A DNA stretch of 27,953 bases from an uncultured delta proteobacterium (GCA_963840855.1 CAWJBB010000009.1:1-27953); one strand, 5' to 3'. Shown: positions 2,638 to 21,236, numbered from the stretch's first letter. Notes: generated from the letters alone by a model not told the origin. Program-made: numbers and translations.

Positions 2638-2713
2638 CAACCGCACGTCCCCGGCGTTGTCTTCGATATGGAGGACGCGAGATACGATCTTCGAATCCGC
2701 TACGAGCTGACAT
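2638..2713 (-). pseudogene. Truncated response-regulator receiver-domain remnant
   Basis: Minus strand 2679-2638 reads RVLHIEDNAGDVRL, a typical receiver N-terminus (ILLVEDNPGDVRL-like). The ATG at 2713 overlaps the kinase end but is out of frame with this stretch, and stops follow a few codons later. Confidence 0.65.
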
Positions 2714-4580
2714 TCTCTGGCCCTCCGTCTTGTTTAATCGGGAGTGTAAAGTAGAAGGTCGAGCCTTTTCCCAGCACCGATTCGACCCATATTTTCCCTC
2801 GATGGCGTTCGACGATTTTCTTGCAGATGGCAAGCCCGATGCCGGTGCCAGGATACTCTTGCCTGGTGTGGAGCCGCTGAAAGATCACAAAGATGCGCTC
2901 GGTATATTCCGGATCGATGCCGATGCCGTTATCCATCACCGCGAATCGCCACATTTCCCCATACCGCTGGCACCCCACATGAATCTCTGGCGGCCTTTCG
3001 GCGCGGTACTTGATCGCGTTGCCGATCAGATTTTGCAATAGCTGCCCTAACTGGAACTCATCGCCAGGCACGGTCGGCAACTGATCCTGCGTCACCTGCG
3101 CGCCGCTCTCATCGATGGCGGTTTTTAAATTCAAAAGCGTGCGCGCCAGAACCCCGTTGCAGTCGGTAGCGGTAAATTCCTTCCCTCTCGTGCCCACTCG
3201 CGAATAGGCTAGCAAATCGTCGATTAATCCTTGCATCCGTTTCGCCCCATCCACCGCAAAGCCGATAAACTCGTCGGCATCGCTGTCGAGCTTGCCGCCA
3301 TACTGCGTCTGAAGCAGTCGCACATACGCCGTGACCATGCGCAATGGCTCCTGGACATCGTGGGACACAACCGAGGCGAATTGGTCCAGCTCGACGTTAG
3401 AACGGAGCAGATCTTCCGTCCGCTTCGACAGGGCATCGTGCGCCCTTTTCAGCTCTTCTTTGGAAACGGTGGTTGCCTCCAGTTGTGCAACCATTTGGTT
3501 AAACCGTTGCGCAAGCAGCCCTATCTCGTCTTGGCCGCTCCCGCCAACGCGATACCCCAGATTGCCTCCGGCGACCATCTCTGTACCCGTTCGAAGTTCC
3601 GCAATGGAAACACTGATATGGCGCACGATCCACCAGCCCGCGCCGATGGACACAAGCAAAAAGATCGGGATCAGTAAATAGGCCAGCGTCACGGTCTTGG
3701 CGGAACGTCCTTCAGCTTCGCCGATCAACCGCACCATTTGTGATTGCGCCAAGACACGAAGGCTTTCGTCGAGCACCTCGTCCAATTGCGCCCGGTATTG
3801 GCCAAACCGTTCGACCTCGGCGCGCATTCGCTTATCCAACTCAATTCTCTTGAGCGCCAGAGAGCGCAGCCCGCTGATTCTTCGCCCCAGATTTTCGCCC
3901 CAACGGCGTTCTTCCTGGGAAACGGCGGACCGCAGAAAAAATCCAACGCGCCGCGCGGATTCCCTGAACTCCCGGTGGATCCGCTCCTCGTTATCGGTGC
4001 TCGGTATTTCCAGGTAGGTGCCCAGCCAGTTGCCGACCTCGGCTAGGTCGGCGGCAAATCGTGCCGCCAACAACAGCCGCCGAAAACCTTTTTGCTCCTT
4101 GTCCTCAGTGCCCGCCTGAATTTTTTCTTCGATGGAATCATCGATCGACTGAAATTCGGCGGTGAATGTGCGTGCCAGCGCGTCCGCTTCGTCTTTCCGC
4201 CGCATCAAGCCTTTGCCCAAGGAGATAAATTGCCCATAAAGCGCCGCGATCTTGTCGGCCAGCTGTTTTTCTAGTTGCGTCACCGCGAACGCATCGTACT
4301 GCGTCTTGAATCTCGAAAACTCGCTTGCATCCTTTTCCACCCGCTGGCGGTGTTCCGGCAGCGGCGTTTGCATATACTTCATTACGCCCAGACCGGTGCC
4401 GATGACATTAATCTCCAACTCGTAAGCGGCGGCGCTGACGGGATGGCCCCTTTCACCTATCAGGCGTAAAGCCGTAGCCGTGCTCTCCGCGCTACGGTAA
4501 AAGACCGTCATCGCCGCCAGCCCGCTGCCGATGATCAAGGTAAGTCCCAAGCCAATTTTTTTGCCGATGGACCAGGTCAC
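2700..4580 (-). CDS. Membrane sensor histidine kinase (2 TM, helical periplasmic domain, HAMP, HisKA, HATPase_c)
   Basis: TM segments KIGLGLTLIIGSGLAAMTVFY and LAYLLIPIFLLVSIGAGWWIV, HAMP ...QDEIGLLAQRFNQM, H-box SHDVQEPLRMV, N-box NLIGNAIKY, G1 DNGIGI, F-box IFVIFQRLH, G2 GTGIGLAICKKIV. Start uncertain: the ORF is open to 4736; GTG 4580 was chosen because it follows AGGGA and sits just before TM1. Confidence 0.9.
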   Translation of the reverse strand: MTWSIGKKIGLGLTLIIGSGLAAMTVFYRSAESTATALRLIGERGHPVSAAAYELEINVIGTGLGVMKYMQTPLPEHRQRVEKDASEFSRFKTQYDAFAVTQLEKQLADKIAALYGQFISLGKGLMRRKDEADALARTFTAEFQSIDDSIEEKIQAGTEDKEQKGFRRLLLAARFAADLAEVGNWLGTYLEIPSTDNEERIHREFRESARRVGFFLRSAVSQEERRWGENLGRRISGLRSLALKRIELDKRMRAEVERFGQYRAQLDEVLDESLRVLAQSQMVRLIGEAEGRSAKTVTLAYLLIPIFLLVSIGAGWWIVRHISVSIAELRTGTEMVAGGNLGYRVGGSGQDEIGLLAQRFNQMVAQLEATTVSKEELKRAHDALSKRTEDLLRSNVELDQFASVVSHDVQEPLRMVTAYVRLLQTQYGGKLDSDADEFIGFAVDGAKRMQGLIDDLLAYSRVGTRGKEFTATDCNGVLARTLLNLKTAIDESGAQVTQDQLPTVPGDEFQLGQLLQNLIGNAIKYRAERPPEIHVGCQRYGEMWRFAVMDNGIGIDPEYTERIFVIFQRLHTRQEYPGTGIGLAICKKIVERHRGKIWVESVLGKGSTFYFTLPIKQDGGPENVSS

Positions 4581-4918
4581 GCCATTATCCCTGGAGGGAC
4601 GCGATGCCCAGCTCAGCCCGGCGCGAACCAACCACGGCCGTATCAATTCCCGTAACCCGGCGCCGACGGAACGAACCGGATCGAACCGATGTATCAATTG
4701 TGCGAACGTCGGCAACATTGCTAAATCTTTGCACATGACGTGCTGGGCCGCAATGAAACGCCACGGCGGAGCGGGGGAGTGCGTGTATGTAATGGGTCTT
4801 TTGTGATAAGTGAGCGGCTGGCGCTTTTATCATTGACGCGTGCGACGGCAAATTGATAAGTTGATTCCATCTCGAACGCGACGGGCGGGCCGGCGCCGCG
4901 CGCCCAGGGAGGACAAAC

Positions 4919-6037
4919 ATGGTTATCGGACTTTCCCACGGCGGAACCAATGTTTATTCGTCGCCGCAGTACTCACGGCAACTCTGGGTTGGCACTCAGG
5001 ACGGCTTGGTCCTGTTTGAACGGGCGGACAACGGAGAGTGGCGCGAGGGCCAACGGGCACTGCGCGGCCAGCATATCAGCTCGATTATCTTCGAGCGGAC
5101 AACCGAAACGATGTTTGCCGGGGCGTTTTTCGGCTCCGTCCACGCCAGCTCAGACGGCGGCAAAAGCTGGGAGCGGCGCGATAATGGTATCCCGGTCCAC
5201 GACGTCTACAGCCTCGCCTGCCACCTAGTCGATGGCACGGTGCGGGTTTATGCAGGGACGCAACCCGCACATTTATTCGTCAGCGAAGACCTGGGACAAC
5301 ACTGGTCCGAGCTTCCGTCGCTGCGAGAAGTACCGACCAGTTCGCAGTGGTCTTTCCCGGCCCCGCCGCATATTGCCCATACCAAGTTTATTACCTTCGA
5401 TCCACAGGATTCGCACACGATCTACGCTTGCGTCGAGCAGGGCGCGTTTCTGAAAAGCACCGATTTGGGCAAGAGCTGGCATGAGCTTAACACGGTCGGC
5501 CTATACAAGGACAAAAACCGGCCTGTGGAACACTTCTATGACGTGCACCGCGCGCTCATCGATCCGTGCGATCCGCAACGGATTTACGTCACCGGCGGCG
5601 CCGGCCTCTACGTTACTTACACCGGCGGCAGCAGCTGGGAACGCTGGACTAGCCCTGAATGGGCGCCGGATGTCTATCCCGATGGTTTTGTCTGGAATCC
5701 GAAGAATCCAAATACCATGTTCGTCGCGGCTGCCGAGCATAACCCGGTAACTTGGCGCAAGGCCGGCCCGCTCGCCCATGCCGGAGGGAAGATCTACCGC
5801 AGCAATGACGGCGGAAAGAACTGGCAGAAGCTCGGCGGCGGCCTGCCAGATAGTTTGAAACATGAGTTCGGCGCGCTCTGCCTCGAGGAATCGGCTGGAG
5901 TCTGCTCGATCTTCGGCGGCACCACGGGTGGCGAATTGTTTTGCAGCGAAGACAGCGGCGAGTCATGGAAACTGATCACCTCAGACCTAGCGCCGATTTC
6001 GAAAAAGGGCCATGAGCGGCTGTTAGCGGCGAGTTGA
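4919..6037 (+). CDS. WD40/YVTN/BNR (Asp-box) repeat beta-propeller protein, probably cytoplasmic
   Basis: RBS GGAGG. Six SxDxGxxW-type repeats (SSDGGKSW, SEDLGQHW, STDLGKSW, TYTGGSSW, SNDGGKNW, SEDSGESW). No signal peptide. Confidence 0.85.
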   Translation: MVIGLSHGGTNVYSSPQYSRQLWVGTQDGLVLFERADNGEWREGQRALRGQHISSIIFERTTETMFAGAFFGSVHASSDGGKSWERRDNGIPVHDVYSLACHLVDGTVRVYAGTQPAHLFVSEDLGQHWSELPSLREVPTSSQWSFPAPPHIAHTKFITFDPQDSHTIYACVEQGAFLKSTDLGKSWHELNTVGLYKDKNRPVEHFYDVHRALIDPCDPQRIYVTGGAGLYVTYTGGSSWERWTSPEWAPDVYPDGFVWNPKNPNTMFVAAAEHNPVTWRKAGPLAHAGGKIYRSNDGGKNWQKLGGGLPDSLKHEFGALCLEESAGVCSIFGGTTGGELFCSEDSGESWKLITSDLAPISKKGHERLLAAS

Positions 6038-6073: not shown

Positions 6074-6823
6074 ATGAGCGATTCAGCGGAAAATCCCGGC
6101 AAACAAATCGCCGCAGAACTCCGCAAACAAAGTGAAAACGACGCTGCCGTGACGCCCATGGACGCCGTGGCGGCGGCGGCCCGCGCAGGCAAGTTATCCG
6201 ATGACCAATGCTTCCGGCTGCTCGCTCGCCTTTGGACCCTCAAGCGCATGATGTACTACGTTTACGGCGGCTGGGCACAGGGAATTAGCTTGAACGAATA
6301 TCCGCCCACCGTGGCGTATTTGTTCGGCAGGCAGACTTACGACGAGTCGACCCACGAGATGCAGTTCTGTGACGAAATCCTCAAACGCCACTGGGTACGC
6401 ACGCAGCGCCAGCTGTTCGATCACGCTTACGGGCGATTCGACCTGGCAACGCGCACCGGCGCTTATGTCTTCTGCCTGCGCGCTTTGGCCAACTATCCGC
6501 AAAACGTTCGCATCGCCGCCCTTAACTTGGGGCCAAAGGTTATCGAGCTGGCATGGACGGAACGCTTCGCCAATTCTCTGCGCGACGAACCTCTAAGCGC
6601 GCTCTTCTTGAGCCAACTGCCGGAAACCCGCAGCCATATGCTCATGGGTAAGTTACAGGCGGAGCGTTTTTTACAAAAGGAAGTCGATAAAGAGCTGGCG
6701 AAGCGCCTTTCAGCTGAGACCCGGCGCGATTATCTGTTTTTCCTCGAAGAGACCGCGCGCTTCGTTTTGGGACTGGAAGAAGAAAAGGCGGGCGAAGTAA
6801 CGGTGTCCGCCGATATCGATTGA
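6074..6823 (+). CDS. Ferritin-like fold protein with degenerate diiron ligands
   Basis: Helical protein. RQTYDESTH and SQLPETRSH align with RQIWDEVKH and SQEAEELMH of the 7210-7950 paralog. Confidence 0.7.
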   Translation: MSDSAENPGKQIAAELRKQSENDAAVTPMDAVAAAARAGKLSDDQCFRLLARLWTLKRMMYYVYGGWAQGISLNEYPPTVAYLFGRQTYDESTHEMQFCDEILKRHWVRTQRQLFDHAYGRFDLATRTGAYVFCLRALANYPQNVRIAALNLGPKVIELAWTERFANSLRDEPLSALFLSQLPETRSHMLMGKLQAERFLQKEVDKELAKRLSAETRRDYLFFLEETARFVLGLEEEKAGEVTVSADID

Positions 6824-6840
6824 AACGATCGAGGTCCGTT

Positions 6841-6874
6841 TTAAACGACTTGAACCGCTTGAACGATTTGAACC
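6841..6874 (+). repeat. TTGAAC-core 9-nt-period tandem repeat (copy 1)
   Basis: ttaaacgac ttgaaccgc ttgaacgat ttgaacc, directly before the RBS of the first ferredoxin. Confidence 0.85.
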
Positions 6875-6884
6875 AAAGGAATCT

Positions 6885-7157
6885 ATGCCCGGTATAAAAA
6901 TTGATCATGCTAAATGCACCGACTGCCGCATGTGCTACGTCGTGTGCCGCGAGCTAAATTTTAACGCCGTCGCTGTCTCGCCTACGGCGCGGCACCTGTT
7001 GGAAATCGACGAGCGCTGCATTTATCCAAAGTGCACGGTCTGTCTTATGTATTGCCCGGCAGAAGGATCCATCGTCGAAACCGACACGGGACGATCACTG
7101 GTTCCTCCACCACTAGAAGTCTGGACGGAAAATCAACGCTGGCCCCGGATACCTTGA
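6885..7157 (+). CDS. 2[4Fe-4S] dicluster ferredoxin
   Basis: CTDCRMCYVVC and CIYPKCTVCLMYCP motifs; RBS AAGGA. Confidence 0.88.
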   Translation: MPGIKIDHAKCTDCRMCYVVCRELNFNAVAVSPTARHLLEIDERCIYPKCTVCLMYCPAEGSIVETDTGRSLVPPPLEVWTENQRWPRIP

Positions 7158-7200
7158 ACGTTGAAGCTTCGAACTTTGAACGGCTTGAACGATTTGAACG
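7154..7200 (+). repeat. TTGAAC-core tandem repeat (copy 2)
   Basis: ttgaacg ttgaagct tcgaact ttgaacggc ttgaacgat ttgaacg. Shares the exact 17-mer gcttgaacgatttgaac with copy 1. Confidence 0.85.
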
Positions 7201-7209
7201 GAGTTTTTC

Positions 7210-7950
7210 ATGCAACCCATTCTTAAGGATTTTTTGGGAAAATGGGTCTATCCCACTGGTTTCACGGGCCCTGGCGTTGAATTCCGCCTGCGCCAGACCG
7301 AGCGCTGCCTGCCGCTGTGGGACAAGCTGGTAGCGCAGGCGATTCAATTCGCGGAAAAGGATCTCAAATCTGGAAGTGACGAATACAAGGCTGTTCGCGC
7401 CCGGTCTGGTTACGCCGCCGAAGGCCCCTTCATGTCACTCAAGCAGATGTCGACGCAGATTCTTTCCGTCGAGATAGGAGAGCAACCCGCGTATATCGAC
7501 CTCCAGCGCATGCGCGCGCGGCAAATATGGGACGAGGTGAAACACGGCCAGCTCCATGCCGACGTACTTCTGCGCGGCGGCTTCATCAAGCGCGAAGAAG
7601 AACTCATGAACGACCCGCGTGCGAACACGCAGCCTAAACTCTCGTATTTCGGCATGACCGCGATGTTTCCCCACATCCACCCGCTGGCCCGCGCCGGGCA
7701 GCATTACTACAACGAGTCGATGGCCTGCCTCGGCATCGCTGCGACCTTGAGCGTCATTGGCGACGACCTGGTTCGCCACCAACTGCGCAGCCAGGAAGCC
7801 GAAGAACTGATGCACTTCATGGAAGGCAAGTACCAAATTGACGCCTACGCGCTGACACCCAAGGACCAAAAACCCATCGAAGAAGTTTTTGATTTTCTCC
7901 TAAGACCCTGGGCGCCGGAGCCGGGCAGGGCCTTGGGCGGATCGCAATAG
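7210..7950 (+). CDS. Ferritin-like diiron-carboxylate protein (putative oxygenase catalytic subunit)
   Basis: Complete E...ExxH...E...ExxH pattern: E71, E109/H112 (DEVKH), E169, E199/H202 (EELMH). RBS GGAG. Confidence 0.78.
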   Translation: MQPILKDFLGKWVYPTGFTGPGVEFRLRQTERCLPLWDKLVAQAIQFAEKDLKSGSDEYKAVRARSGYAAEGPFMSLKQMSTQILSVEIGEQPAYIDLQRMRARQIWDEVKHGQLHADVLLRGGFIKREEELMNDPRANTQPKLSYFGMTAMFPHIHPLARAGQHYYNESMACLGIAATLSVIGDDLVRHQLRSQEAEELMHFMEGKYQIDAYALTPKDQKPIEEVFDFLLRPWAPEPGRALGGSQ

Positions 7951-7953
7951 ACG

Positions 7954-8145
7954 ATGAAAGTCCGAATCGTCGAAAGTCTCTGCATCGCCTGCGGTCTTTG
8001 CCGTGAGGTTTGCCCCGAGCATGCGGTCCATCCGAAGATGCAGGATATTCATCATATGTACGAAGTTCTCGCGCACGAATGCACCGGTTGCGGCGATTGT
8101 TTGCCCTACTGCCCGGCGCCGGGGGCGTTGCAGGAGTATTCTTAA
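7954..8145 (+). CDS. 2[4Fe-4S] dicluster ferredoxin
   Basis: CIACGLCREVCP and CTGCGDCLPYCP; starts 3 nt after the previous stop. Confidence 0.92.
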   Translation: MKVRIVESLCIACGLCREVCPEHAVHPKMQDIHHMYEVLAHECTGCGDCLPYCPAPGALQEYS

Positions 8146-8206: not shown

Positions 8207-8839
8207 ATGATCGACTTCGAAGGACGACACATCCCCAACCAGTTAAGCGAAATCGTCGACCCCAAACACACAGTGCTTTTGGTTTGGGATATGCAGAATG
8301 ACCAGGCCGGCGGGTCGTTTAACAAAGAGGCGTTGATTCGCACCGCGCCGCCGCTCATCGCCGCGGCAGCGCAAGCCAAAATCACCACGGTTTACACCCG
8401 GCAGACGCCTTTTTTGTGGAAAGACGAGGCGGTAACGTGGATTCGCCGGGCGATGATCGATCAAAAGGTCGACCATCCGACCAAACTCAAACCGCGCCGC
8501 ATCAAAGGGAGTTTCGGCTGGCAATTCCTGGAGCCTATCAAGCCCGCCGAAAACGATTTCGTCATCGACAAGCGCCGGCCGACGATGTTCATCGGCAACG
8601 AGTTCGAGACCATCATGCACAACCGCGGCGCGACCAGTGTCGTTATGATCGGCTGCACCACCGACGGTGGCGTCGAAGCAACCGTGCGCGATGGATATAA
8701 TCGCGGCTACCTGATGGTGGTCGTGCGCGATTGCGTCGGCACCTACACCCAGGAAGGCCATAACGCCGCGCTCCAGCGCATGGTGCGCTACGCCGATGTC
8801 GTGGAATCGAAAGAACTGATCGGCCATTGGCTCCGATAA
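8207..8839 (+). CDS. Isochorismatase/cysteine-hydrolase family protein (nucleophile Cys replaced by Gly)
   Basis: LLVWDMQND, IDKRR, GCTTDGGVEATVRDG...RGY and VVRDCVG motifs. RBS GAGGTG supports ATG 8207 over the ORF start at 8003. Confidence 0.9.
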   Translation: MIDFEGRHIPNQLSEIVDPKHTVLLVWDMQNDQAGGSFNKEALIRTAPPLIAAAAQAKITTVYTRQTPFLWKDEAVTWIRRAMIDQKVDHPTKLKPRRIKGSFGWQFLEPIKPAENDFVIDKRRPTMFIGNEFETIMHNRGATSVVMIGCTTDGGVEATVRDGYNRGYLMVVVRDCVGTYTQEGHNAALQRMVRYADVVESKELIGHWLR

Positions 8840-8909: not shown

Positions 8910-9884
8910 ATGATGAGTAACCCGAACGGTGCTAAGGCTTTGCACGTCGCGACATTTTCGGGCTGGTATCGTTTCGAGCAGCGCGGCAAAGATTTTATAC
9001 AAACCAAACGCGATCTCTCTTACTGGACGCTCACCTGCATGTCGGTTGACCCGGATGACCCAAACACGATTTACGCCGGCACCGAGCACTCCGGACTCTT
9101 CTACACCAAAGACGCCGGCGCACACTGGCATAGAGCTGACCCGCAAGTGCCCAAGATGTTCCTGTATTCCGCCCTGGCTCTGAACGGCGGTGTCATGGTG
9201 GGTACCGTTCCTTCGGCGGTTTACCGGAGCAAACATGGCGGTGGATGGGAAGAATTGGCGGGCGTGCGCCTGCACAGCGCGGCTGCGAATTTTCCACCGA
9301 GCCCGGAGCTCCAGTCGCGCACACGCTATTTAACGTTCGACCCTGAAAATAAGAACCGTCTCTACGCCGGCATCGAAGTCGGTGGGATGATCGTGAGCGA
9401 CGACGGCGGACGGGGTTGGGAGCCGGCGAACGAAGGTCTCACCGACATGGACATCCATGAAGTCCTTGCGTCCAAAGAGCACTCCGGCATGGTCTTTCTC
9501 GCCTGCGGCGAGGCCTGCTTTCGTAGCCACGACCGTGGCGGCCATTGGGAAAACATTTCACCGAAAAATCATGACTACGGGATCTCCGTCGCCGAAGATA
9601 AAGACGGCGTCGTCTACGTCGGCGCGGCCCGAGGGCGCCCCAATCTGTGGATCCGCGAACAAGGCGCCAAGTCGGCGATCCTGCGCAGCGGCGACAAAGG
9701 CTCGACCTGGGAAACAGTCGTCGACGGACTGAAGGGCGGCGTCATGCATCTGTGCTCCATGCCGGACGGCAACGGCATGGTCGCCGGCACTTCGGATGGG
9801 ACTTTGCTGGTTGTCGACGACTCAGGGGCGCGCGAAGTAGCAGGCGGGCTACCGTTCGTAACGTCGGTGCAACTGGCGGCGTAA
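8910..9884 (+). CDS. Second WD40/YVTN/BNR (Asp-box) beta-propeller protein
   Basis: RBS AAGGAG. Repeats TKDAGAHW, SDDGGRGW, SHDRGGHW, SGDKGSTW; NFPPSPELQSRTRYL parallels SFPAPPHIAHTKFI of the first propeller. Confidence 0.85.
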   Translation: MMSNPNGAKALHVATFSGWYRFEQRGKDFIQTKRDLSYWTLTCMSVDPDDPNTIYAGTEHSGLFYTKDAGAHWHRADPQVPKMFLYSALALNGGVMVGTVPSAVYRSKHGGGWEELAGVRLHSAAANFPPSPELQSRTRYLTFDPENKNRLYAGIEVGGMIVSDDGGRGWEPANEGLTDMDIHEVLASKEHSGMVFLACGEACFRSHDRGGHWENISPKNHDYGISVAEDKDGVVYVGAARGRPNLWIREQGAKSAILRSGDKGSTWETVVDGLKGGVMHLCSMPDGNGMVAGTSDGTLLVVDDSGAREVAGGLPFVTSVQLAA

Positions 9885-10199: not shown

Positions 10200-10844
10200 A
10201 TGAAACTTTACACATTCTTCCGCAGTTCAGCGTCCTATCGCGTGCGTATCGCGCTCAATCTGAAGGGGCTCCGCTATGAGCAGGCGCCGATCCATCTGCG
10301 CCGAGCCGGCGGCGAGCAGTTGCAGCCCGCCTTCAAGGCAATCAATCCACAGGCTCTGGTGCCCGCACTTGAGGATGATGGCCGCATCCTGACGCAGTCG
10401 CTGGCGATTATTGAGTACCTCGACGAGAAATTTCCTAACCCGCCGTTGCTTCCCAAAGATCCGGCTGATAAGGCGTTGGTGCGCAGTATGGCGCTGGTGA
10501 TCGCCTGCGAGGTTCATCCAATACAAAACCTGCGCGTGCTTAACTACGTCAAGAGCGCTTATAATCAAACTGACGAGCAGGTAAACCGCTGGTCCCAGCA
10601 CTGGATGAACCTCGGCTTTACGGCTCTGGAGCAGTTGATTGTTGCGCAACCGAGCCGCGGAAGGTTTTGCGTTGGCGACAGGCCGACGTTGGCCGACATT
10701 TGTCTCGTACCGCAACTTGGCAACGCCCGGCGCTACGGGTGCGACTTGTCCCAATACCCGGCGATTCAAGGCATTGAAAAAAACTGCATGGCGCTTTCCG
10801 CTTTTTCCGGCGCCGCGCCGGAAAAACAACCTGACGCGGAATAA
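10200..10844 (+). CDS. maiA: Maleylacetoacetate/maleylpyruvate isomerase (GST zeta class)
   Basis: FRSSASYRVRIALNLKG, INPQALVPAL, LTQSLAIIEYLDE, ACEVHPIQNLRVL, LADICLVPQ and PEKQPDA motifs; RBS GAGGTG. Confidence 0.95.
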   Translation: MKLYTFFRSSASYRVRIALNLKGLRYEQAPIHLRRAGGEQLQPAFKAINPQALVPALEDDGRILTQSLAIIEYLDEKFPNPPLLPKDPADKALVRSMALVIACEVHPIQNLRVLNYVKSAYNQTDEQVNRWSQHWMNLGFTALEQLIVAQPSRGRFCVGDRPTLADICLVPQLGNARRYGCDLSQYPAIQGIEKNCMALSAFSGAAPEKQPDAE

Positions 10845-14782: not shown

Positions 14783-16846
14783 TCACGCCCGGCGAAATAC
14801 TGGCTGCACCGGCTTGCCTTCCAACATTTCTTCGACCCTGTTCCGCCGGATCGCCTCGCCGGTGATCTCCATCGCAGCGCGATAGACCCGAAGAGCGTAT
14901 TCGATGTCTTCATTACTGTGGCTGAAGCAAAGATTATGGCCGCCGGAGAAAAGCACGCCGCGCTTAAGGCACTCCTGCTGAAACAGACTCTTGACCAAAA
15001 GCGATTCCCGCCCGCTCTCATCGAAGAAGCTCACCACCGTACGCGGCGGCAAGCCGGCACAGCGCACTAACTTTTCGACGCCGAATTGCCTCGCCAAAAC
15101 GTTCAAACCATCCTTGATCTTGCCGCCCTGTTCCCAATTATGGGCAATGACTTCTTTTTCGGCGATCTCCTTCATGGTCGCCAGGCACGCCGCCAGCGAC
15201 AACGCTTCGCCGCCGAAGGTAAAGGAGAAGAACGTCTGCTCGAAATGGTTCATGATCTCGCGCGGACCGACTACGGCGGACAACGGGTAACCGTTGGCCA
15301 TCGCCTTGCCGAAGCAAGCAAGATCAGGAACGACGCCAAAATATTCCTGGGCGCCGCCCCGGGCCAAGCGAAATCCGGTAATCACTTCGTCGAAAATTAG
15401 CAGACAGCCTTCACGGCTGCAGAGCTCGCGCACTTGCTGCAAAAAACCTCCCTCCGGCTCCGCCACACCGATGGGCTCGAGGATAACGGCCGCCACCCGC
15501 CTGCGGTTCTCGTCCAAAATTCGCTTGAGGCTCTCAATATTGTTGTATTCGAAGCTAGCGGTCAGCTGGGCGACGGCTTTGGGGACACCACGGTTAAAAG
15601 TCGTCGTGCCGATGTACCAGTCCTGCCACCCGTGATAACCGCAGCAGGCAATCATGTCTCGCCCCGTATAGGCTCGCGCCAGGCGCACCGCGCCAGCGGT
15701 GGCATCCGAGCCATTCTTGCCGAAGCGGACCATCTCGGCGCACGGCACCATCGCCGCTAACCGCTCCGCCACTTCGATTTCTAGCGGATGCGGCAGGGAA
15801 AACGAAACACCTTGAGTCAGCTGGCGGCGCACTGCTTCATCAACCGCCGGATAACAATGTCCCAGAATGATCGGTCCAAGGGCCATGGGAAAATCGACAT
15901 ATTCGTTACCGTCGGCGTCCCATACGTGACTGCCGTTACCACGCACTAAGAATGCCGGCGCCACGCCTTGAACATACTGAGTTGCGCCCTTACTTAGAGT
16001 CTGCGAACCGCCTGGAATCACGCGCGCCGCGCGCCGCGCTAGATCCTGTGAAAGATCGAGCCTGCGCTTTCGCTGCGGCAGCGGCGTTTCCCGGGCAAGG
16101 GAATGGTAAAAACCTTCGTTGCGGATCAGTCCGGCATTGAGGTCTCCCAGTATGGGTTCGGCGTCGAGCAACGCCAACACCTCGCGCCAGCCGAAAAACT
16201 CCCTAGCCCCCAGGCGCGCGTAGACAGCGCGGACGAATTCAAGATCGCGGGGTTCGTCGACGGTCCAGCGCAAGTGTCTGGTCGACTGCCCCAGTTCGCT
16301 TCGCACGTTGCGCAAACTAAACCGCCGCGAGGTCCTGATGAACGGCGTTACGTGCTCCCGGTCGGCGGCCCGCCGGCCATTGCGCCAGGCGATTTCCAAC
16401 GCCGCGAAAGAAAACACCTCGGCGTCGAGACCGTCGGGATAAGTGCAAACCAGCGTATTGGACGCGTAGTCACACTCTTCGCTCAAAAACGTCGTGATTA
16501 CCCGATCCACCACTTCGGAATCGATCAAAGGGCAGTCACCGGTAATGCGCACCACAATGTCGGCCCTGGCGCTCTTGGCCGCCTCATAGTAACGGTCCAG
16601 AACGTCAGTTTCGTGACCGCGAAACACTTTAAAGTTTTTTTGCGTTGCGGCCTCGGCGATGGGGTCATCCCCTTGGGCGCTGGAGGTCGCAACGATCACG
16701 TCCTTGATAAGCCGTGATCTTCCGAGTCGCGACACGATATGCTCCAGCATCGGCTTTCCGCCCACGTTTTCCAGCACCTTACCCGGGAGCCGGGTAGAGC
16801 TCATGCGCGCCTGTACGATGGCTACAATATTGCGTTCGTGTTCCAC
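14783..16846 (-). CDS. SpsF-type cytidylyltransferase fused to class III PLP aminotransferase
   Basis: N-terminal QARMSSTRLPGKVL, DVLDRY, RITGDCPLID, REHVTP, RWTVD; C-terminal PGGSQTLSK, KNGSDAT, YHGWQDW, FDEVITGFR, FGKAMANG. Confidence 0.93.
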   Translation of the reverse strand: MEHERNIVAIVQARMSSTRLPGKVLENVGGKPMLEHIVSRLGRSRLIKDVIVATSSAQGDDPIAEAATQKNFKVFRGHETDVLDRYYEAAKSARADIVVRITGDCPLIDSEVVDRVITTFLSEECDYASNTLVCTYPDGLDAEVFSFAALEIAWRNGRRAADREHVTPFIRTSRRFSLRNVRSELGQSTRHLRWTVDEPRDLEFVRAVYARLGAREFFGWREVLALLDAEPILGDLNAGLIRNEGFYHSLARETPLPQRKRRLDLSQDLARRAARVIPGGSQTLSKGATQYVQGVAPAFLVRGNGSHVWDADGNEYVDFPMALGPIILGHCYPAVDEAVRRQLTQGVSFSLPHPLEIEVAERLAAMVPCAEMVRFGKNGSDATAGAVRLARAYTGRDMIACCGYHGWQDWYIGTTTFNRGVPKAVAQLTASFEYNNIESLKRILDENRRRVAAVILEPIGVAEPEGGFLQQVRELCSREGCLLIFDEVITGFRLARGGAQEYFGVVPDLACFGKAMANGYPLSAVVGPREIMNHFEQTFFSFTFGGEALSLAACLATMKEIAEKEVIAHNWEQGGKIKDGLNVLARQFGVEKLVRCAGLPPRTVVSFFDESGRESLLVKSLFQQECLKRGVLFSGGHNLCFSHSNEDIEYALRVYRAAMEITGEAIRRNRVEEMLEGKPVQPVFRRA

Positions 16847-16848
16847 GA

Positions 16849-17880
16849 TTAAGTCTCCAATTCAATCCAGCGTGGTTTGAGCGCCGACGCCTTCGCTGCT
16901 AGCGCGATGCTGAGCACCCGCGCCGCTTCGAACAGATCTTGCTCCGGCTGCGCGCGCCGCGCCAGACAGTTTACGAAATGCCGCATTTCGTCCAAATACA
17001 TTTCATTCGCTTCCCAACCCGTGGGGTTGTTGAAGCATTGCCAGGTTTTCGTGTGCACCGAATACCAGCGCACCTGTCCGGCAATATAGTCCCAATGGAT
17101 CGTTCCTTCATCGCCTATGATCTGGCAGGTGCGGTTATAGGCTCGCTGAATGTAATCAAGATGAATTTCGCCCAAGGCGCCATTTTCAAAGCGCAGCAGC
17201 ACAGCCGCGGTATCTTCCGTGTCGATTTCCAGGCGGCTCAGCTTGCCGGCGAGACAAAACACCCCCGCCACTTCGCCCAAGAGCCAGCGGATGTAATCGA
17301 TCTCGTGAATCGCATCGAGTATCACTCCGCCACCGAGATCAGCACGGGCGCTGTAGGTCTGGCGATAATCCTCCCATGGATGCCAAACTGGGAGGTACTG
17401 GCCCGCTTCGACGCGCCCGGCGATGATCCGTCCAACCCCTCGTTCCGCGAGTAGCCGCTTGACTGTGAGCAGCCCTGGATGAAAGCGCAAGTTGCAGCCC
17501 ACCAGTGAAACCAAATTTTTTTGCCGTGATAGTTCCATAAGCCGCTCAACTCCATCCCAAGAACTCGCCAGTGGTTTTTCGATGAATAAATGAACGCCCC
17601 GCTCCGCCGCTTCGATGGCCAGCGGCATATGCAGCGCCGTCGGTGCCGCGATCACGATCGCATGGGGTTCTCGTCCCCAAGCATCATCGAGGCTCGCCAC
17701 CGTTTCGATGCCCAACTCCGCGTTGACTTCGGCACACCGGTCGGTGCGCGAATCGCAACCGAGAATCTCTCCGGCGCCCAGGGTGCGCAGGTTCTTCATG
17801 TGGCGCCGGCCGATGGAACCGCAGCCAGCTACGACAAAACGCCGCCCCTGTAGTTGACTGAAACTATCCACGGACGCCAT
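16849..17880 (-). CDS. Gfo/Idh/MocA family oxidoreductase
   Basis: GCGSIGRRH, FIEKPLA, GCNLRFHP, GGGVILDAIHEIDY and DTEDTA motifs. Confidence 0.93.
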   Translation of the reverse strand: MASVDSFSQLQGRRFVVAGCGSIGRRHMKNLRTLGAGEILGCDSRTDRCAEVNAELGIETVASLDDAWGREPHAIVIAAPTALHMPLAIEAAERGVHLFIEKPLASSWDGVERLMELSRQKNLVSLVGCNLRFHPGLLTVKRLLAERGVGRIIAGRVEAGQYLPVWHPWEDYRQTYSARADLGGGVILDAIHEIDYIRWLLGEVAGVFCLAGKLSRLEIDTEDTAAVLLRFENGALGEIHLDYIQRAYNRTCQIIGDEGTIHWDYIAGQVRWYSVHTKTWQCFNNPTGWEANEMYLDEMRHFVNCLARRAQPEQDLFEAARVLSIALAAKASALKPRWIELET

Positions 17881-18547
17881 TCACACCCGGCTTGATATAA
17901 TGACCATGCAGCTCCTTACGCAGCAGCCAGGCGCCGATGCGCTCATGCTCCGCTACCCGCGCTTGGAGTTCCTTGGTTGCGTGGTGAGCAGTTAAAAAGG
18001 ATACCGGATGGTATAGCCCAGAGGCCAGAAACGTCGCCGCGTAGTTTTGTTTGTAGGTATAGACTTCTTCACTTTCGAGGTGGTGGTAGCGGACTTGCAA
18101 TTGATTGGCCGGGTAAAAATCACCGATCAGAAGATAGCCGCTGTCGCTCACCAGACGGTCTACCTCAGCGACGGCTCGTAGAAGGCTTTGCCGATCGATC
18201 CAGTGAAACACGAAGTTGACAATGACCAGATCGAATGATTCGCGGAGCGGCACTGTGCTGGCCGTGCCGCGTATGAAAGTGATGAAGGGGAAGCTCGCCT
18301 TGCCGTTGAGCACCGCTTGGGCCGATGGTTCCACCGCCACCGTTTCGGCCCCGGTGCGCTGGTGGATCGCCGCCAGCCTGAAACCGTTGGCCGCACCGAT
18401 CTCCAGCACGCGCTCGGGAGTAAGGCCATAGAGTCTAATTAGCTTGAGCGGTAGGTCCGCCGAGGCATCGAAGGCGTTAAGGGCCCGCCGGTTGCGCTCA
18501 AACCATCGGTCGCCTTCAGAGTCGCTGAAAACCCTATCTTGGAGCAC
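17864..18547 (-). CDS. Class I SAM-dependent methyltransferase (nonulosonate-cluster associated)
   Basis: SEGDRWFERN, VLEIGAANG, AVEPS, FDLVIVNFVFHWID and LLIGDF motifs. Confidence 0.88.
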   Translation of the reverse strand: MLQDRVFSDSEGDRWFERNRRALNAFDASADLPLKLIRLYGLTPERVLEIGAANGFRLAAIHQRTGAETVAVEPSAQAVLNGKASFPFITFIRGTASTVPLRESFDLVIVNFVFHWIDRQSLLRAVAEVDRLVSDSGYLLIGDFYPANQLQVRYHHLESEEVYTYKQNYAATFLASGLYHPVSFLTAHHATKELQARVAEHERIGAWLLRKELHGHYIKPGVNGVRG

Positions 18548-19640
18548 GGGCCGTCCTCTCCGCCGCTGCGGTCATAACGGGTAGACCTTTTGCGCCGACC
18601 AGCTCCCAGGTGAGCGGAGTGCCGCGCTCTATGTCGCTGGTAGCCATGCGGCCCAACACTTCGTCGAGATGGCGCGTATGAAGTCCATAACCGGGCCGAA
18701 TGGAGCGTACGTTGTGCTCGGTGAACATTTGTCCGGCGCGGACGTTATCTACCACGAACAGTGAACGGCGAAAGGCGCGGCTCTTGGCTTCCGCTGCGGT
18801 CAACCCAAAGTCCACGCGACCCAGCACCGTCTCGGCGACACGTACACCGTCCACCAAAGCTTTGAATTCCTGGGGCTCTAGCGAAAAAGCGCTGTCTGGC
18901 CCGGCCAACGAGCGCGACAGCGTGAAGTGTTTTTCAATGACGCAGGCGCCCAGGACAACCGCCGCTAACGAGGCAACGCCGCCCAGCGTATGGTCCGACA
19001 CACCCACGGGCACGCCAAAGGTCTGCGCCAAATGCGGTATCGTGCGCAGATTCATTTCCTCATAGGATGCGGGATAGGCGCTGGTGCACTTGAGCAGCGC
19101 CAATTCGTTGCTGCCCGCGTCTTTGATTACGCGCACCATTTCGTCGATCTCCGCGAGCGTCGCCATGCCAGTGGAGGCGATAATCGGTTTTCCCGTAGCC
19201 GCCACCTTGCGCAAGAGCGCGATGTCGCAGTTTTCAAAGGACGCGATCTTGTGCGCGGAGACATTCATGCGTTCAAGAAAATCCACCGCGCTTGCATCGA
19301 AAGGCGTGGAAAAGAGTTCCAGCCCGATGCGCTGCGCGATCTCCTTCAAGCGCGGCTGCCATTCCCATGGCATAGAGGCCTCGCGGTATAGGTCATAAAG
19401 CGTGCGCCCTTCCCACAAGGTTCCGTCAATGCGAAAGTATTGATTATTGCAGTCGATGGTCAGAGTGTCAGGAGTGTAGGTTTGCAGCTTCACCGCGTCT
19501 GCGCCGGCCTCTTTGGCGGCTTCGACAATCTTCACCGCATGGTCGAAGCTCTGCCCATGGTTGGCCGACATCTCTGCGATGATATAACAGGGATATCCCG
19601 GCCCGATGCGCCGGCCGCCGATTTCGATGACGTGTCTCAT
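18534..19640 (-). CDS. pseI: Pseudaminic acid synthase
   Basis: IIAEMSANH, AVKLQTYTPDTLT, FSTPFD, KIASFE, LKCTSAYPA, SDHTLG, IEKHFTL and C-terminal SAF domain (RRSLFVV...SIRPGYGL). Start ATG 19640. Confidence 0.93.
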   Translation of the reverse strand: MRHVIEIGGRRIGPGYPCYIIAEMSANHGQSFDHAVKIVEAAKEAGADAVKLQTYTPDTLTIDCNNQYFRIDGTLWEGRTLYDLYREASMPWEWQPRLKEIAQRIGLELFSTPFDASAVDFLERMNVSAHKIASFENCDIALLRKVAATGKPIIASTGMATLAEIDEMVRVIKDAGSNELALLKCTSAYPASYEEMNLRTIPHLAQTFGVPVGVSDHTLGGVASLAAVVLGACVIEKHFTLSRSLAGPDSAFSLEPQEFKALVDGVRVAETVLGRVDFGLTAAEAKSRAFRRSLFVVDNVRAGQMFTEHNVRSIRPGYGLHTRHLDEVLGRMATSDIERGTPLTWELVGAKGLPVMTAAAERTARAPR

Positions 19641-19662
19641 GTTCCAGCCGTGTCGCTCACCG

Positions 19663-20166
19663 TTAACTTCCTCGCTGATATACCACGCATTCGCGGTTGG
19701 CGAGGCGTTTGTGTTCGGCCACCGTGAAGCGCGCTTTGGCGAATGCGCGCTGCGACGCTTGATTTTCACTGAGCGCGATTCCCCGTAGCCATCTAACTCC
19801 CAATTCGCGGGCCGCCATTGGCGCTGTCAATTCCAGGAGCAGAGTTCCGAGACCTCTCCCGCGAACAACCGGCGCCACCGAAAAACTGATCTGAGCTGAA
19901 TCAGCGCTGATGCGGTCATAGCGAATCTGACCAACGGGGATCTGTTCACGCTCCATGATCCAAAGCCGGCAATCGGGCGATGCCAACTTTTTTGCGTACC
20001 AGCTTTGATGAACGTCCCAAGATATGGCTTCGGTGTTGAAAGAGTTCGCACGCGTCATCGGATCGTTGGCCCATTGCCAGAGCAAAAAGACATCATCGAC
20101 CACGGCCAGGCGAAGGCTAATTTCGCCAAACATCTGAATGTCGTCCCTCTGCGTTACAATCGGCAT
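19663..20166 (-). CDS. pseH: GNAT N-acetyltransferase, PseH-like
   Basis: WQWANDPMTRANSF, HQSWY, VGQIRYD, RGRGLG and NQASQRAF motifs; lies between pseG and pseI. Confidence 0.75.
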   Translation of the reverse strand: MPIVTQRDDIQMFGEISLRLAVVDDVFLLWQWANDPMTRANSFNTEAISWDVHQSWYAKKLASPDCRLWIMEREQIPVGQIRYDRISADSAQISFSVAPVVRGRGLGTLLLELTAPMAARELGVRWLRGIALSENQASQRAFAKARFTVAEHKRLANRECVVYQRGS

Positions 20167-20168
20167 GG

Positions 20169-21236
20169 CTAGGCCGCCCTTGTACAGTCGCGTTGTAACA
20201 ATGCCGATACCACCCGTTCCGCGCCTTTGCCGTCCACCAGCGCTCTGCCCTTTTGGCTCATGCGCAGGCGGCGAAAAGAAGAAAACAGAAGACCATCCAC
20301 GGTGTTAGCTAAGCGCTCCGCAGAGACCTCAGCGTGCCATCCGAGGTTAAAAACCACTCCAGCCGTTCCGAGCTCTTCGGCGATGCCGCGCTGGTTTTCT
20401 GCGATCACCAGACTCACCGCTGGTAATCCCAAACAAGCGAGTTCCCAGCAGGTACCGCCAGCGGCGGTTATCGCAAGATCAGCCCAAGCCATCAACGGTG
20501 CCATGTCGGAGACCGCGCTCAGCAACTCCAGTCTGCCGGGAAACGCGGCCGCCGCGTCGCGGAGTTCCTCGATGTGCGGATTGGCCGGACCCGCCACCAC
20601 GCGAATTTGTAAACGAGTAGTTTCGAGTCGGCGCAACGCCTCGATGACGTTGAGCGTCACGTTGTCGGGATCGCTACCGCCTAGCGTCACTAGAATCTTG
20701 CGCGCGGTCTCCGGCACGGTGTGCAACCGGCTGCGCCAAAATATGAATTCGCGCCGCAGCAAAGCATACTCCGGTCCCAGCAGGACCACCGCATCGGAAT
20801 TACAGTCATACTTGAGCTCTGCCGCGCCCAGATTTTGGTTCAGCAGAATATCGGCATCGTAGTGCGTGAGGCGAACCGTGTCGTCGATCACCAGCAGGCG
20901 GCACCCGCCGGCGCGCACGGCGCGCTGATAGTCAGAATCAAAATCGTAGCCGTCGAGAACGACGTAGGCCGCCTTCAGCTCCGCGAGGAGCGTCAGCGTC
21001 GATTGAATATCAAGAGGCACCGAGGCGTCGGGCGAGAGCGATAGAAATTCGGCGCCAGCGGCTTGTATCCGTTGCTGCAGAGTTGCGTTGTTACAGCGGC
21101 TCAAAAACCAAACCGGTCCGCCGCGCCCACCCCACGCCTGTGCGAGCGCGAGGCAGCGCATGACATGGCCGCTGCCCATCGCCGGGTTAGCATCAGCGCG
21201 TACCAGTAACGGCGGTAGTTCGTCTGTTGATCCCAT
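20169..21236 (-). CDS. pseG: UDP-2,4-diacetamido-2,4,6-trideoxy-beta-L-altropyranose hydrolase
   Basis: RADANPAMGSGHVMRCLALA, VLDGY, LNQN, LGPEYALLRREF, LGGSDP, AAGGTCWELACLG and DGKGAERV motifs. Confidence 0.93.
   Translation of the reverse strand: MGSTDELPPLLVRADANPAMGSGHVMRCLALAQAWGGRGGPVWFLSRCNNATLQQRIQAAGAEFLSLSPDASVPLDIQSTLTLLAELKAAYVVLDGYDFDSDYQRAVRAGGCRLLVIDDTVRLTHYDADILLNQNLGAAELKYDCNSDAVVLLGPEYALLRREFIFWRSRLHTVPETARKILVTLGGSDPDNVTLNVIEALRRLETTRLQIRVVAGPANPHIEELRDAAAAFPGRLELLSAVSDMAPLMAWADLAITAAGGTCWELACLGLPAVSLVIAENQRGIAEELGTAGVVFNLGWHAEVSAERLANTVDGLLFSSFRRLRMSQKGRALVDGKGAERVVSALLQRDCTRAA

Follow-up and report, generated by a model that had tools for sequence, protein, structure and literature searches.

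Paired heme-oxygenase-like paralogs with their own ferredoxins in uncultured bacteria: a candidate heteromeric di-metal oxygenase

Heme-oxygenase-like di-metal oxygenases (HDOs) are built on a seven-helix fold and carry their diiron site on core helices 1-3 with a 3-His/3-carboxylate set, namely a Glu and a His on core helix 1, a Glu on core helix 2 and an HxxxDxxH motif on core helix 3, as set out in the accessible portions of two papers (PMC7848743, PMC13133933). According to the same portions, the SznF/RohS subgroup has a seventh ligand, a Glu on auxiliary helix 2, and HDOs with this intrinsic seventh carboxylate form a peroxo intermediate without substrate and need outside electrons (PMC13133933, PMC7848743). 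The present study concerns two genes, A and B, and the two ferredoxin genes beside them, fdx1 and fdx2, in a 27,953-nucleotide stretch of DNA from an uncultured delta proteobacterium (GCA_963840855.1 CAWJBB010000009.1:1-27953), hereafter the window; coordinates are positions in this window and refer to the + strand unless stated. A preliminary description of the same DNA had presented A and B as a ferritin-like pair, one with a complete diiron site and one with Lys at two Glu ligand positions, and had proposed a heterodimeric diiron enzyme of a new family. The analysis presented here makes it fairly probable that A and B together form a heteromeric, ferredoxin-fed di-metal (probably diiron) oxygenase belonging to an undescribed branch of the HDOs.

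Subunit A (6074..6823, + strand) has 249 amino acids and a degenerate metal site consisting of K57, E91, H94, K155, Q181, T185 and H188. Subunit B (7210..7950, + strand) has 246 amino acids and a complete candidate di-metal site consisting of E71, E109, H112, E169, Q195, E199 and H202. Both sites were assigned from heme-oxygenase-like models and ligand columns, and the residues named in the preliminary description are all numbered correctly in these two open reading frames (ORFs). Direct comparison of A with B by BLASTP is weak (E 0.12). Profile-profile alignment by hhalign of the A family (21 sequences) with the B family (23 sequences) gives a probability of 71.6% and an E value of 3.5e-5 over 107 columns, and recovers both motif alignments that had been made by hand. 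The B protein of the window also matches alphaproteobacterial homologs of A by BLASTP at 45-50 bits. The two families are bridged by a singleton clade with one gene per locus, which is matched in 8/8 metagenome loci by both the B-family hidden Markov model (HMM; 59-70 bits) and the A-family HMM (46-67 bits). Among 1.84 billion cluster representatives the B profile matched 112, mostly fragments from one 50% cluster, and at E<=0.001 none belonged to the A family. Ten of the 112 were retrieved, and eight distant relatives of full length were aligned.

A maximum-likelihood tree of 48 sequences, with 15 A rows and 14 B rows, was midpoint-rooted; it has long branches and gives no order of events. 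A and B are each monophyletic in this tree (100/100 in both cases), and A, B and the singletons form one clade (100/100) separate from the canonical HDOs. Two singleton-type sequences group with B (98/99), and the tree does not fix the position of A among the singletons. The A and B subtrees are congruent, with the same order of clade branching, as expected for long-term partners. Judged at the sequence level, A and B are best regarded as remote paralogs whose similarity goes beyond chance; hhalign, the bridging clade, the tree and the ligand counts given below all agree with the earlier view of a paralogous pair with one complete and one degenerate site.

Neither A nor B matches a Pfam or NCBIfam model at E<=1, so that the family is unnamed, as had been supposed, and database relatives of both are all called hypothetical protein. 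Eight distant relatives, searched against Pfam at E<=10, gave no PF14518 or ferritin-clan match above the curated cut-off. Sequence searches of the PDB with B, A, superfamily and singleton profiles found nothing under E 0.0075. The best rows of these searches (nicalin, threonine aldolase, MmoX, ribonucleotide reductase (RNR) beta and E2 enzymes) were rejected as noise or bare ExxH-motif matches; the ExxH helix resembles MmoX and RNR beta below threshold only, at E 0.04-0.5. Likewise rejected as unsupported was DUF455 (PF04305), suggested by the ESM Atlas on 30% and 13% of the members of two look-alike clusters: no match to it was found on A, B or the 8 distant relatives, none occurs in the genome of the window, and a literature search gave nothing relevant.

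The superfamily of A and B is indicated by their predicted structures and by profile homology. The AlphaFold2 models have a predicted local distance difference test score (pLDDT) of 88.9 and a predicted template modelling score (pTM) of 0.88 for B, and 90.9 and 0.88 for A (42- and 45-row alignments). Foldseek matched neither model to anything at E<=0.001; its best rows for both are TenA homologs, UndA, CADD, PolF and AetD, with template modelling (TM) scores for A of 0.68/0.76 (2gm8_A) and 0.71/0.80 (2rd3_D). When A was compared by VIA-align with 48,161 chains, the top 21 rows were all heme-oxygenase-like (Z 14.4-18.6, 197-221 residues aligned), among them TenA 2rd3_A (Z 18.6, root-mean-square deviation 2.8, 213 aligned), CADD 8va9_A (18.4), BesC (17.3), HrmI (15.9) and UndA (15.4); the highest-ranking ferritin-like chain scores Z 14.4, and PaaA (3pvr_A) 12.8. 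The top rows for B are also heme-oxygenase-like, at Z 12.8-13.8 over ~190-207 residues (TenA 1rtw_A 13.8, CADD 13.6, UndA 13.0), and Dps, bacterioferritin, PaaC (3pvr_B, Z 12.1, 169 aligned) and aldehyde-deformylating oxygenases appear at Z ~10-12, the ferritin-like chains mostly covering only B residues ~50-220. For either model such chains score lower than the heme-oxygenase-like matches and align along a shorter part of the protein. Helical bundles reach about Z 13-14 through arrangement alone, which is the level stated for the tool; the scores of A lie above it.

The genome of the window contains 32 matches to PF14518 (Haem_oxygenas_2), 28 of them over the cut-off, and 26 matches to PF03070, none of either on the contig of the window. 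When the 28 PF14518 paralogs were aligned by hhalign with the singleton clade, the probability was 96.8% (E 2.1e-10, 187 columns); with A, B and the singletons together it was 95.1% (E 3.2e-8, 187 columns), and with the A family 81.7% (E 1.1e-5, 212 columns). On account of this profile-profile homology the A/B family is placed, as far as sequences can place it, in a divergent branch of the heme-oxygenase-like di-metal (PF14518-related) superfamily and not among ferritin-like proteins. The ferritin-like label is accordingly not supported, the best fold matches being heme-oxygenase-like and the profile homology being to PF14518.

The hhalign alignments allow the ligand residues of A and B to be read against those of the HDOs. 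E109 and H112 of B fall in the columns of the core-helix-1 Glu and His, between which canonical HDOs have four more residues; E169 falls in the column of the core-helix-2 Glu, and Q195, E199 and H202 fall in the columns of H, D and H of HxxxDxxH. K155, Q181, T185 and H188 of A occupy the corresponding HDO columns. Since the canonical PF14518 paralogs of the genome possess E, H, E, H, D/E and H in these columns in 28/28 cases, the columns are taken as the ligand columns. B retains five of the six positions of the HDO set, with Gln at the first His, and A at most three. E71 of B is located ahead of core helix 1, where helix 58-71 breaks off at the G72-P73 turn that leads into helix 73-85, and its auxiliary-helix-2 column in the 28 canonical paralogs holds Q in 18, N in 5, E in 4 and D in 1. 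The B site thus appears to be a 2-His/4-Glu site with the ferritin-type pattern E / ExxH / E / ExxH on an HDO scaffold. This pattern would explain the earlier impression of a ferritin-like protein as well as the sub-threshold ExxH matches to MmoX and RNR beta. From the match of columns to the canonical HDO ligand columns, we infer that the listed residues converge on one metal site in three dimensions.

In a genome collection that represents each species once, 132 relatives of B were confirmed, and the analysis covers the 80 best loci among them. Ligand residues were counted over these 80 loci and the window, rows with fewer than 220 aligned residues being dropped (2/80 loci for B and 12/80 for A). 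The pattern E71/E109xxH112/E169/E199xxH202 (E-E-H-E-E-H) is present in 79/79 B sequences, as is Gln at position 195 (79/79), and none of the eight full-length distant relatives departs from E / ExxH / E / ExxH. Retention of the full ligand set by homologs of A, which the preliminary description had listed as evidence against itself, is seen in 0/69 rows of the multiple sequence alignment. Position 155 of A is K in 68 sequences and Q in one, position 185 is T in 37 and N in 32, and position 188 is H in 69/69. The remaining positions vary more, with K in 35, E in 32 and N in 2 at position 57, E in 57 and D in 12 at position 91, and H in 55 and Q in 14 at position 94 (n=69 throughout). K57, K155 and T185 occupy columns that hold Glu in B and in 8/8 distant full-length relatives (14-sequence superfamily alignment). 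The replacement of the second bridging Glu in A by T185 therefore stands, as T or N, for all 69 sequences. The proposal of Lys at two Glu positions stands for K155 (68/69) and falls short for K57, which is found in only one of the tree's two main A branches, Glu being present in 32/69. The losses at 155 and 185 appear to be ancient, since they are common to every A sequence analysed. D90, E95, E158, E184 and H188 are invariant in A.

Prediction of the A-B complex, which had been proposed as a check, gave a confident interface. The interaction score (ipSAE) was 0.82, 0.83 and 0.77, the best of three controls reaching 0.05; the ipSAE mark is attained by 58/80 solved complexes and 2/110 mismatched pairs, a calibration that is approximate because custom alignments were used. 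The runs agree in at least 97% of contacts, with a partner pLDDT of at least 86. The predicted interface involves residues 58-96 and 111-122 of A and 72-117 and 129-139 of B, so that in each chain core helix 1 and the latter half of auxiliary helix 2 take part, in a pseudo-symmetric packing. The invariant residues R58, Y61, Y62, Y64 and G65 of A lie within it.

The association of A and B with ferredoxins is widespread. When gene content was scored by HMMs on stop-to-stop frames, A, B and at least two ferredoxin genes were found in 72/80 loci, A and B with one ferredoxin in 4/80 (two of which end at a contig edge just past B), and A and B only in 1/80. Three of the 80 are without A; two of these start inside B at a contig edge, and the third, L082, is considered below. 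A accompanies B in 77/80 loci. Both Cys motifs (CxxCxxCxxxC and Cx4CxxCxxxC) are present in 75/75 fdx1 orthologs, and two canonical motifs in 68/75 fdx2 orthologs. Fusions of B with fdx2 occur in P0024 (313 aa) and P0044 (319 aa), both with a ferredoxin domain in their precomputed annotation, and in L059 (303 aa; B 1-234, ferredoxin 240-302); other seeming fusion ORFs were dismissed as out-of-frame overlaps, leaving L059 as the sole true fusion among the 80 loci. B and fdx2 of the window share a reading frame with one TAG and one codon between them (7948-7956), so a single stop-codon change would be enough to fuse or split the two. One HDO-like gene is present in 8/8 loci of the singleton clade, with a homologous ferredoxin gene immediately upstream in three annotated loci (L083, L085, L090); this ferredoxin shares 43% identity with fdx2 and 33-38% with fdx1. 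The unit of an HDO-like protein and an 8Fe ferredoxin therefore exists in a single-subunit form too.

The 132 matches to B all come from uncultured organisms of at least seven named lineages, labelled Binatia, Methylomirabilota/Rokubacteria, Dehalococcoidia, Alphaproteobacteria (Stellaceae), Gammaproteobacteria, Dormiibacterota, Verrucomicrobiia and others, bin labels that may be wrong. Within the genus of the window B is present in 3/4 other genomes, and within its family in 10/24, the positives including two unpublished genomes (G215 and G209). It was found in 0/16 genomes from other families of the order and in 0/200 other genomes sampled across the phylum. The cassette is interpreted as a patchy accessory operon, present in several other phyla, and not as contamination.

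Genes around the cassette differ between clades. Binatia-like relatives share the neighbours of the window: two BNR propellers, an isochorismatase-family hydrolase, maiA, a DUF3500 gene and a solute-binding protein. A divergent class III extradiol dioxygenase is directly upstream in the 18 loci that carry it (alphaproteobacterial loci and L041; in the latter a ferredoxin gene lies upstream of the dioxygenase), and Amidohydro_2 is directly downstream in at least three alphaproteobacterial loci (L057, L058, L072). The cassette of a Dehalococcoidia locus (L038) has Rieske oxygenases on either side. Singleton loci contain Mo enzymes of the xanthine dehydrogenase family (L084, L085 and L090 of four annotated), alpha/beta hydrolases, a family III coenzyme A (CoA)-transferase and an enoyl-CoA hydratase. 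The context thus varies by clade but is catabolic throughout, which suggests aromatic or heterocycle catabolism. In a Dormiibacterota-labelled locus (L031:5439-8303), the cassette is followed by an AMP-binding/PP-binding/Thioesterase (adenylation-thiolation-thioesterase) protein.

In the mechanism proposed for a heteromeric oxygenase, B would be the catalytic subunit, binding two metal ions via E109/H112, E169 and E199/H202, with E71 at the Gly-Pro kink of auxiliary helix 2 as an extra Glu ligand. A would be an ancient paralog that has lost its site, with Lys on core helix 2, Thr or Asn on core helix 3 and, in the lineage of the window, Lys on the auxiliary helix, and would pair with B, each chain contributing auxiliary helix 2 and core helix 1. 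Each subunit would have its own 2x[4Fe-4S] ferredoxin to bring electrons from cellular reductants to the di-metal site. The extra auxiliary-helix-2 Glu would imply an N-oxygenase-type need for outside electrons, with which dedicated ferredoxins fit. The reduced site would then activate O2 and hydroxylate or N-oxygenate a catabolic substrate, probably an aromatic or N-heterocyclic acid. The analysis itself shows homology, fold class, conserved ligand columns, a conserved cassette, gene fusions and a predicted interface; we infer metal binding and identity, the use of O2, the electron path, the reaction and the substrate. With moderate confidence we propose a monooxygenase, either a hydroxylase or an N-oxygenase, whose substrate, itself a guess, would be an aromatic or N-heterocyclic acid or its CoA ester. 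The heterodimeric diiron enzyme of a new family foreseen in the preliminary description survives in a probable pairing, through the predicted interface and the 77/80 co-occurrence, and in its unnamed family; its ferritin-like affiliation gives way to a branch of the HDOs.

Several observations weigh against such an enzyme. The complex test cannot separate an A-B heterodimer from A-A or B-B homodimers, and paralogs of proteins solved as homodimers may pass it through likeness. L082, with full flanks, has B and fdx2 with no A or fdx1 within 7 kb, and in L041, L054 and L056 A abuts B without a ferredoxin gene between them, one or both ferredoxins being absent beside the pair. A is strongly conserved, on par with many enzymes, which may imply a role beyond scaffolding. 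The Z of 13-14 for the B model lies inside the noise level of helical bundles and is not decisive alone, and the B family alone aligns with the 28 PF14518 paralogs without significance (E 0.037, 124 columns), so that the link of B to the HDOs goes via the singleton clade. Finally, no ferredoxin reductase is encoded in the block, and O2-activating diiron enzymes do not usually draw their electrons from low-potential 4Fe-4S ferredoxins.

Some of these observations would be accommodated if A and B were two separate enzymes of the same pathway, B as a homodimeric di-metal oxygenase with fdx2, and A with fdx1 as a distinct catalyst or substrate handler, which could be a mononuclear-metal or metal-free protein like TenA and PqqC. 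The B-only locus L082 and the singleton clade, which evidently works with one subunit type, agree with this arrangement. So do the features of A: its high conservation, with the invariant polar residues D90, E95, E158, E184 and H188 near the old site; the alphaproteobacterial form that keeps E57, E91, H94 and H188; a ferredoxin of its own and of distinct subtype in 75/75 orthologs; and the TenA and PqqC-type proteins at the head of its structural list. However, A stands beside B in all but three of the 80 loci, two of the misses being contig edges, the A and B subtrees are congruent, and the predicted interface scores far above its best control (0.82 against 0.05). This interface contains R58, Y61, Y62, Y64 and G65 of A, so that their conservation is explained without catalysis. 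Two separate enzymes are for these reasons considered unlikely, though they are the strongest competitor to a heteromeric oxygenase.

It is less likely still that the cassette does not activate O2 and encodes a ferredoxin-linked reductive or protective di-metal protein, such as a peroxidase or oxidase of the rubrerythrin kind or a reductase of N-O or C-O bonds. The donors, as low-potential 2x[4Fe-4S] ferredoxins, and the lack of a reductase gene in the block would be in keeping with such a protein, as would a weak rubrerythrin match in Pfam for the distant relative P0338 (E 0.025, below cut-off). The 2-His/4-Glu set is also found in rubrerythrin-type and other non-oxygenase diiron proteins. 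On the other side, the neighbours are catabolic and not stress genes (extradiol dioxygenase, Amidohydro_2, Rieske oxygenases, maiA), and the named lineages (soil and marine groups, Stellaceae, Binatia) are presumably mostly aerobic. The family is moreover homologous to the HDOs, whose characterised members, in the accessible portions of the literature, use O2 (PMC13133933, PMC7848743).

Least probable of all, and very improbable in our view, is a ferritin-like four-helix-bundle diiron hydroxylase family with the catalytic/structural split of PaaA/PaaC or of alpha/beta hydroxylases: the exact motif of B (79/79), the superposition of its four ligand helices on Dps, bacterioferritin, PaaC and aldehyde-deformylating oxygenases, the sub-threshold ExxH-helix matches and the division into active and degenerate subunits all recall such enzymes, but the whole chain of A prefers the heme-oxygenase-like fold (Z 18.6 against 14.4 for the first ferritin-like row), the PF14518 homology puts the ligand columns in register with HxxxDxxH, no PaaA_PaaC, Phenol_Hydrox or ferritin-clan family of Pfam matches at E<=1, and no sequence match to a ferritin-type protein goes below E 0.04.

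A heteromeric oxygenase thus being preferred, the cassette could represent, as a narrower and more tentative reading that we put at somewhat less than an even chance, the first obligate heteromeric HDO, with a 2-His/4-Glu catalytic subunit, a Lys-filled pseudo-subunit and two private 8Fe ferredoxins as electron wire. A search of the full-text literature, with subscription papers and supplements outside it, found no paper on such a system. If the reading is true, the cassette represents a new class of multicomponent monooxygenase for catabolism in uncultured soil and marine bacteria. The family could also be the missing sequence link pointing to a common origin of the HDO and ferritin diiron scaffolds, since its ligand helices match the sites of both types. 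Its four genes are an expressible target for learning how HDOs are reduced in vivo, what role a pseudo-subunit plays and how HDO and ferritin-like sites are related. The 28 canonical HDO paralogs are an unusually large complement for one bacterium and make the lineage a rich source for the HDO family; the PF14518 genes are located partly in tandem arrays of 3-4, for example at C65:132936-138464, C87:168349-172195 and C40:338615-343517.

In the window the cassette belongs to a tight + strand block in the order prop1, A, fdx1, B, fdx2, isochorismatase-family hydrolase, prop2 and maiA, and the core intergenic gaps of A/fdx1/B/fdx2 are 61, 52 and 3 bases. fdx1 (6885..7157, + strand) encodes a 90-aa ferredoxin of the 2x[4Fe-4S] type with the motifs CxxCxxCxxxC and Cx4CxxCxxxCP (Pfam Fer4 families), and fdx2 (7954..8145, + strand) a canonical 2x[4Fe-4S] ferredoxin of 63 aa (Pfam Fer4, 6.8e-11). 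The block begins with prop1 (4919..6037, + strand), a BNR/Asp-box beta-propeller (Pfam Sortilin-Vps10 5.9e-16, BNR 5e-10) with a homolog upstream of A in loci L003-L030 and none in L031-L082. A second BNR propeller, its paralog prop2 (8910..9884, + strand; Sortilin-Vps10 6.2e-12), lies downstream. The two are 26-29% identical and flank the cassette in the Binatia-like clade only; both match the NCBIfam model 'F510_1955 family glycosylhydrolase' far under its cut-off. Between fdx2 and prop2 lies an isochorismatase-family cysteine hydrolase (8207..8839, + strand; Pfam Isochorismatase 7.3e-40), for which the ATG at 8207 was taken as start to yield the length of its relatives, 210 aa; orthologs of this length are present in 10 Binatia-like loci within L007-L025. 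The last gene encodes maleylacetoacetate isomerase (10200..10844, + strand; glutathione S-transferase zeta class), an enzyme of aromatic ring-cleavage pathways (NCBIfam TIGR01262 maiA, 6.3e-90, above cut-off). Upstream of the block are found a FadL/TodX outer-membrane channel for hydrophobic compounds (50-1525), a short-chain dehydrogenase (1579-2436) and a divergent HAMP histidine kinase (2700-4736, - strand), which may serve uptake and regulation for the pathway.

The spacer upstream of fdx1 (6841..6882, + strand) holds overlapping TTGAAC-containing repeats (family D1, three copies), and a further copy of the same family (7176..7199, + strand, 96%) lies upstream of B. The 24-nt TTGAAC-rich repeat TTGAACNNCTTGAACGATTTGAAC is thus directly 5' of both fdx1 and B, with 96% identity between the spacers; it may play a part in translation or regulation, or be left over from the duplication of the module. 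RNA-library contigs from four studies cover parts of every gene of the block with 88-99% likeness, and one of 460 nt spans the B/fdx2 junction. These contigs were set aside as proof of expression, as they come from relatives and the libraries may contain DNA, and the parts they leave uncovered carry no information. Their loose ends cluster at 6837-6874, and the TTGAAC spacer therefore varies among strains. Promoter-like sites (3 against 3.3 expected from shuffles) and terminator-like sites (8 against 10.6) show no excess.

Elsewhere in the window, a sugar cluster of nonulosonic-acid type (14783-22428, - strand) is found beside flagellar genes. It contains NeuB, a DegT aminotransferase, a cytidylyltransferase fused to a class III aminotransferase, a GFO/IDH/MocA protein, a methyltransferase, a GNAT protein and a glycosyltransferase, and is probably a flagellin glycosylation island. 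The N-terminal and C-terminal helical regions of flagellin are on separate ORFs (23731-24363 and 24494-24970, - strand) 130 bases apart; the gene is either split or frameshifted, unless the assembly is at fault.

Among known proteins, CADD (CT610) of Chlamydia trachomatis and the TenA/PqqC-type proteins are the top structural matches of A and B (CADD 8va9_A, Z 18.4 to A and 13.6 to B; TenA 2rd3_A, Z 18.6 to A), and all share with them a size of ~215-250 residues; none has a significant sequence match to A or B. TenA and PqqC are metal-free enzymes with other active sites, and no conserved residue of A corresponds to the catalytic Cys of TenA, C134 varying among homologs. PaaA/PaaC and the alpha/beta subunits of multicomponent monooxygenases resemble the proposed A-B enzyme in combining a diiron subunit with a ligand-less paralog, in drawing on external electrons and in their catabolic role. 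PaaA/PaaC, moreover, share the E/ExxH/E/ExxH motif with B and superpose moderately on the core (3pvr_B, Z 12.1 to B; 3pvr_A, 12.8 to A). By the structural and profile comparisons given earlier they differ from A and B in fold class and superfamily, and the A and B subunits are much smaller; thus the resemblance drawn in the preliminary description extends to the logic of an active and a degenerate subunit and to the motif of B, and not to the fold. The electron carrier of PaaA/PaaC-type systems is a flavin/2Fe-2S reductase, in place of which two 8Fe ferredoxins lie beside A and B. BoxAB, the benzoyl-CoA epoxidase, is a diiron oxygenase that acts on an aromatic CoA thioester and receives its electrons via a two-[4Fe-4S] protein; BoxB is large and ferritin-like, and BoxA carries FAD. 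Its likeness to the present family is one of general description, extending to the CoA-transferase and enoyl-CoA hydratase genes near some singletons and relatives, and no search made here, none being aimed at BoxAB, revealed a sequence relation to A or B.

DipD, from the dip cluster of Alcaligenes faecalis JQ135, is described in the accessible part of its report as the monooxygenase component of a dipicolinate hydroxylase that takes its oxygen from O2 (PMC11472048). As a catabolic hydroxylase of an N-heterocyclic acid, likened to A and B by description only and with no ferredoxin mentioned in that part (PMC11472048), it is a possible functional precedent by analogy. The closest relatives remain the HDOs of the SznF, RohS and HrmI type, which share with A and B the seven-helix fold, profile homology and the same ligand columns on core helices 1-3. 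SznF and RohS also have an extra Glu at the auxiliary-helix-2 kink as far as the accessible descriptions go (PMC13133933, PMC7848743). E71 of B may correspond to it (SznF E189, RohS E98), a likeness of description and not of residue-level alignment. B departs from the HDOs in the Gln that replaces the first His of HxxxDxxH, in the ExxH spacing on core helix 1 and in its 2 His and 4 Glu, and the PF14518 model recognises neither A nor B. As presented in the accessible portions of the HDO literature, the described members are of a single subunit type and belong to natural-product biosynthesis, their in-cell electron source is mostly not given, and no heteromer or 4Fe-4S partner is mentioned. The cassette, in contrast, pairs its candidate catalytic subunit with a degenerate paralog in an obligate-looking manner and provides dedicated, sometimes fused, 2x[4Fe-4S] ferredoxins. 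It would thus extend the HDOs to a heteromer in which one paralog is dead, with ferredoxins supplied by the cassette itself, ferritin-type ligands and a catabolic setting.

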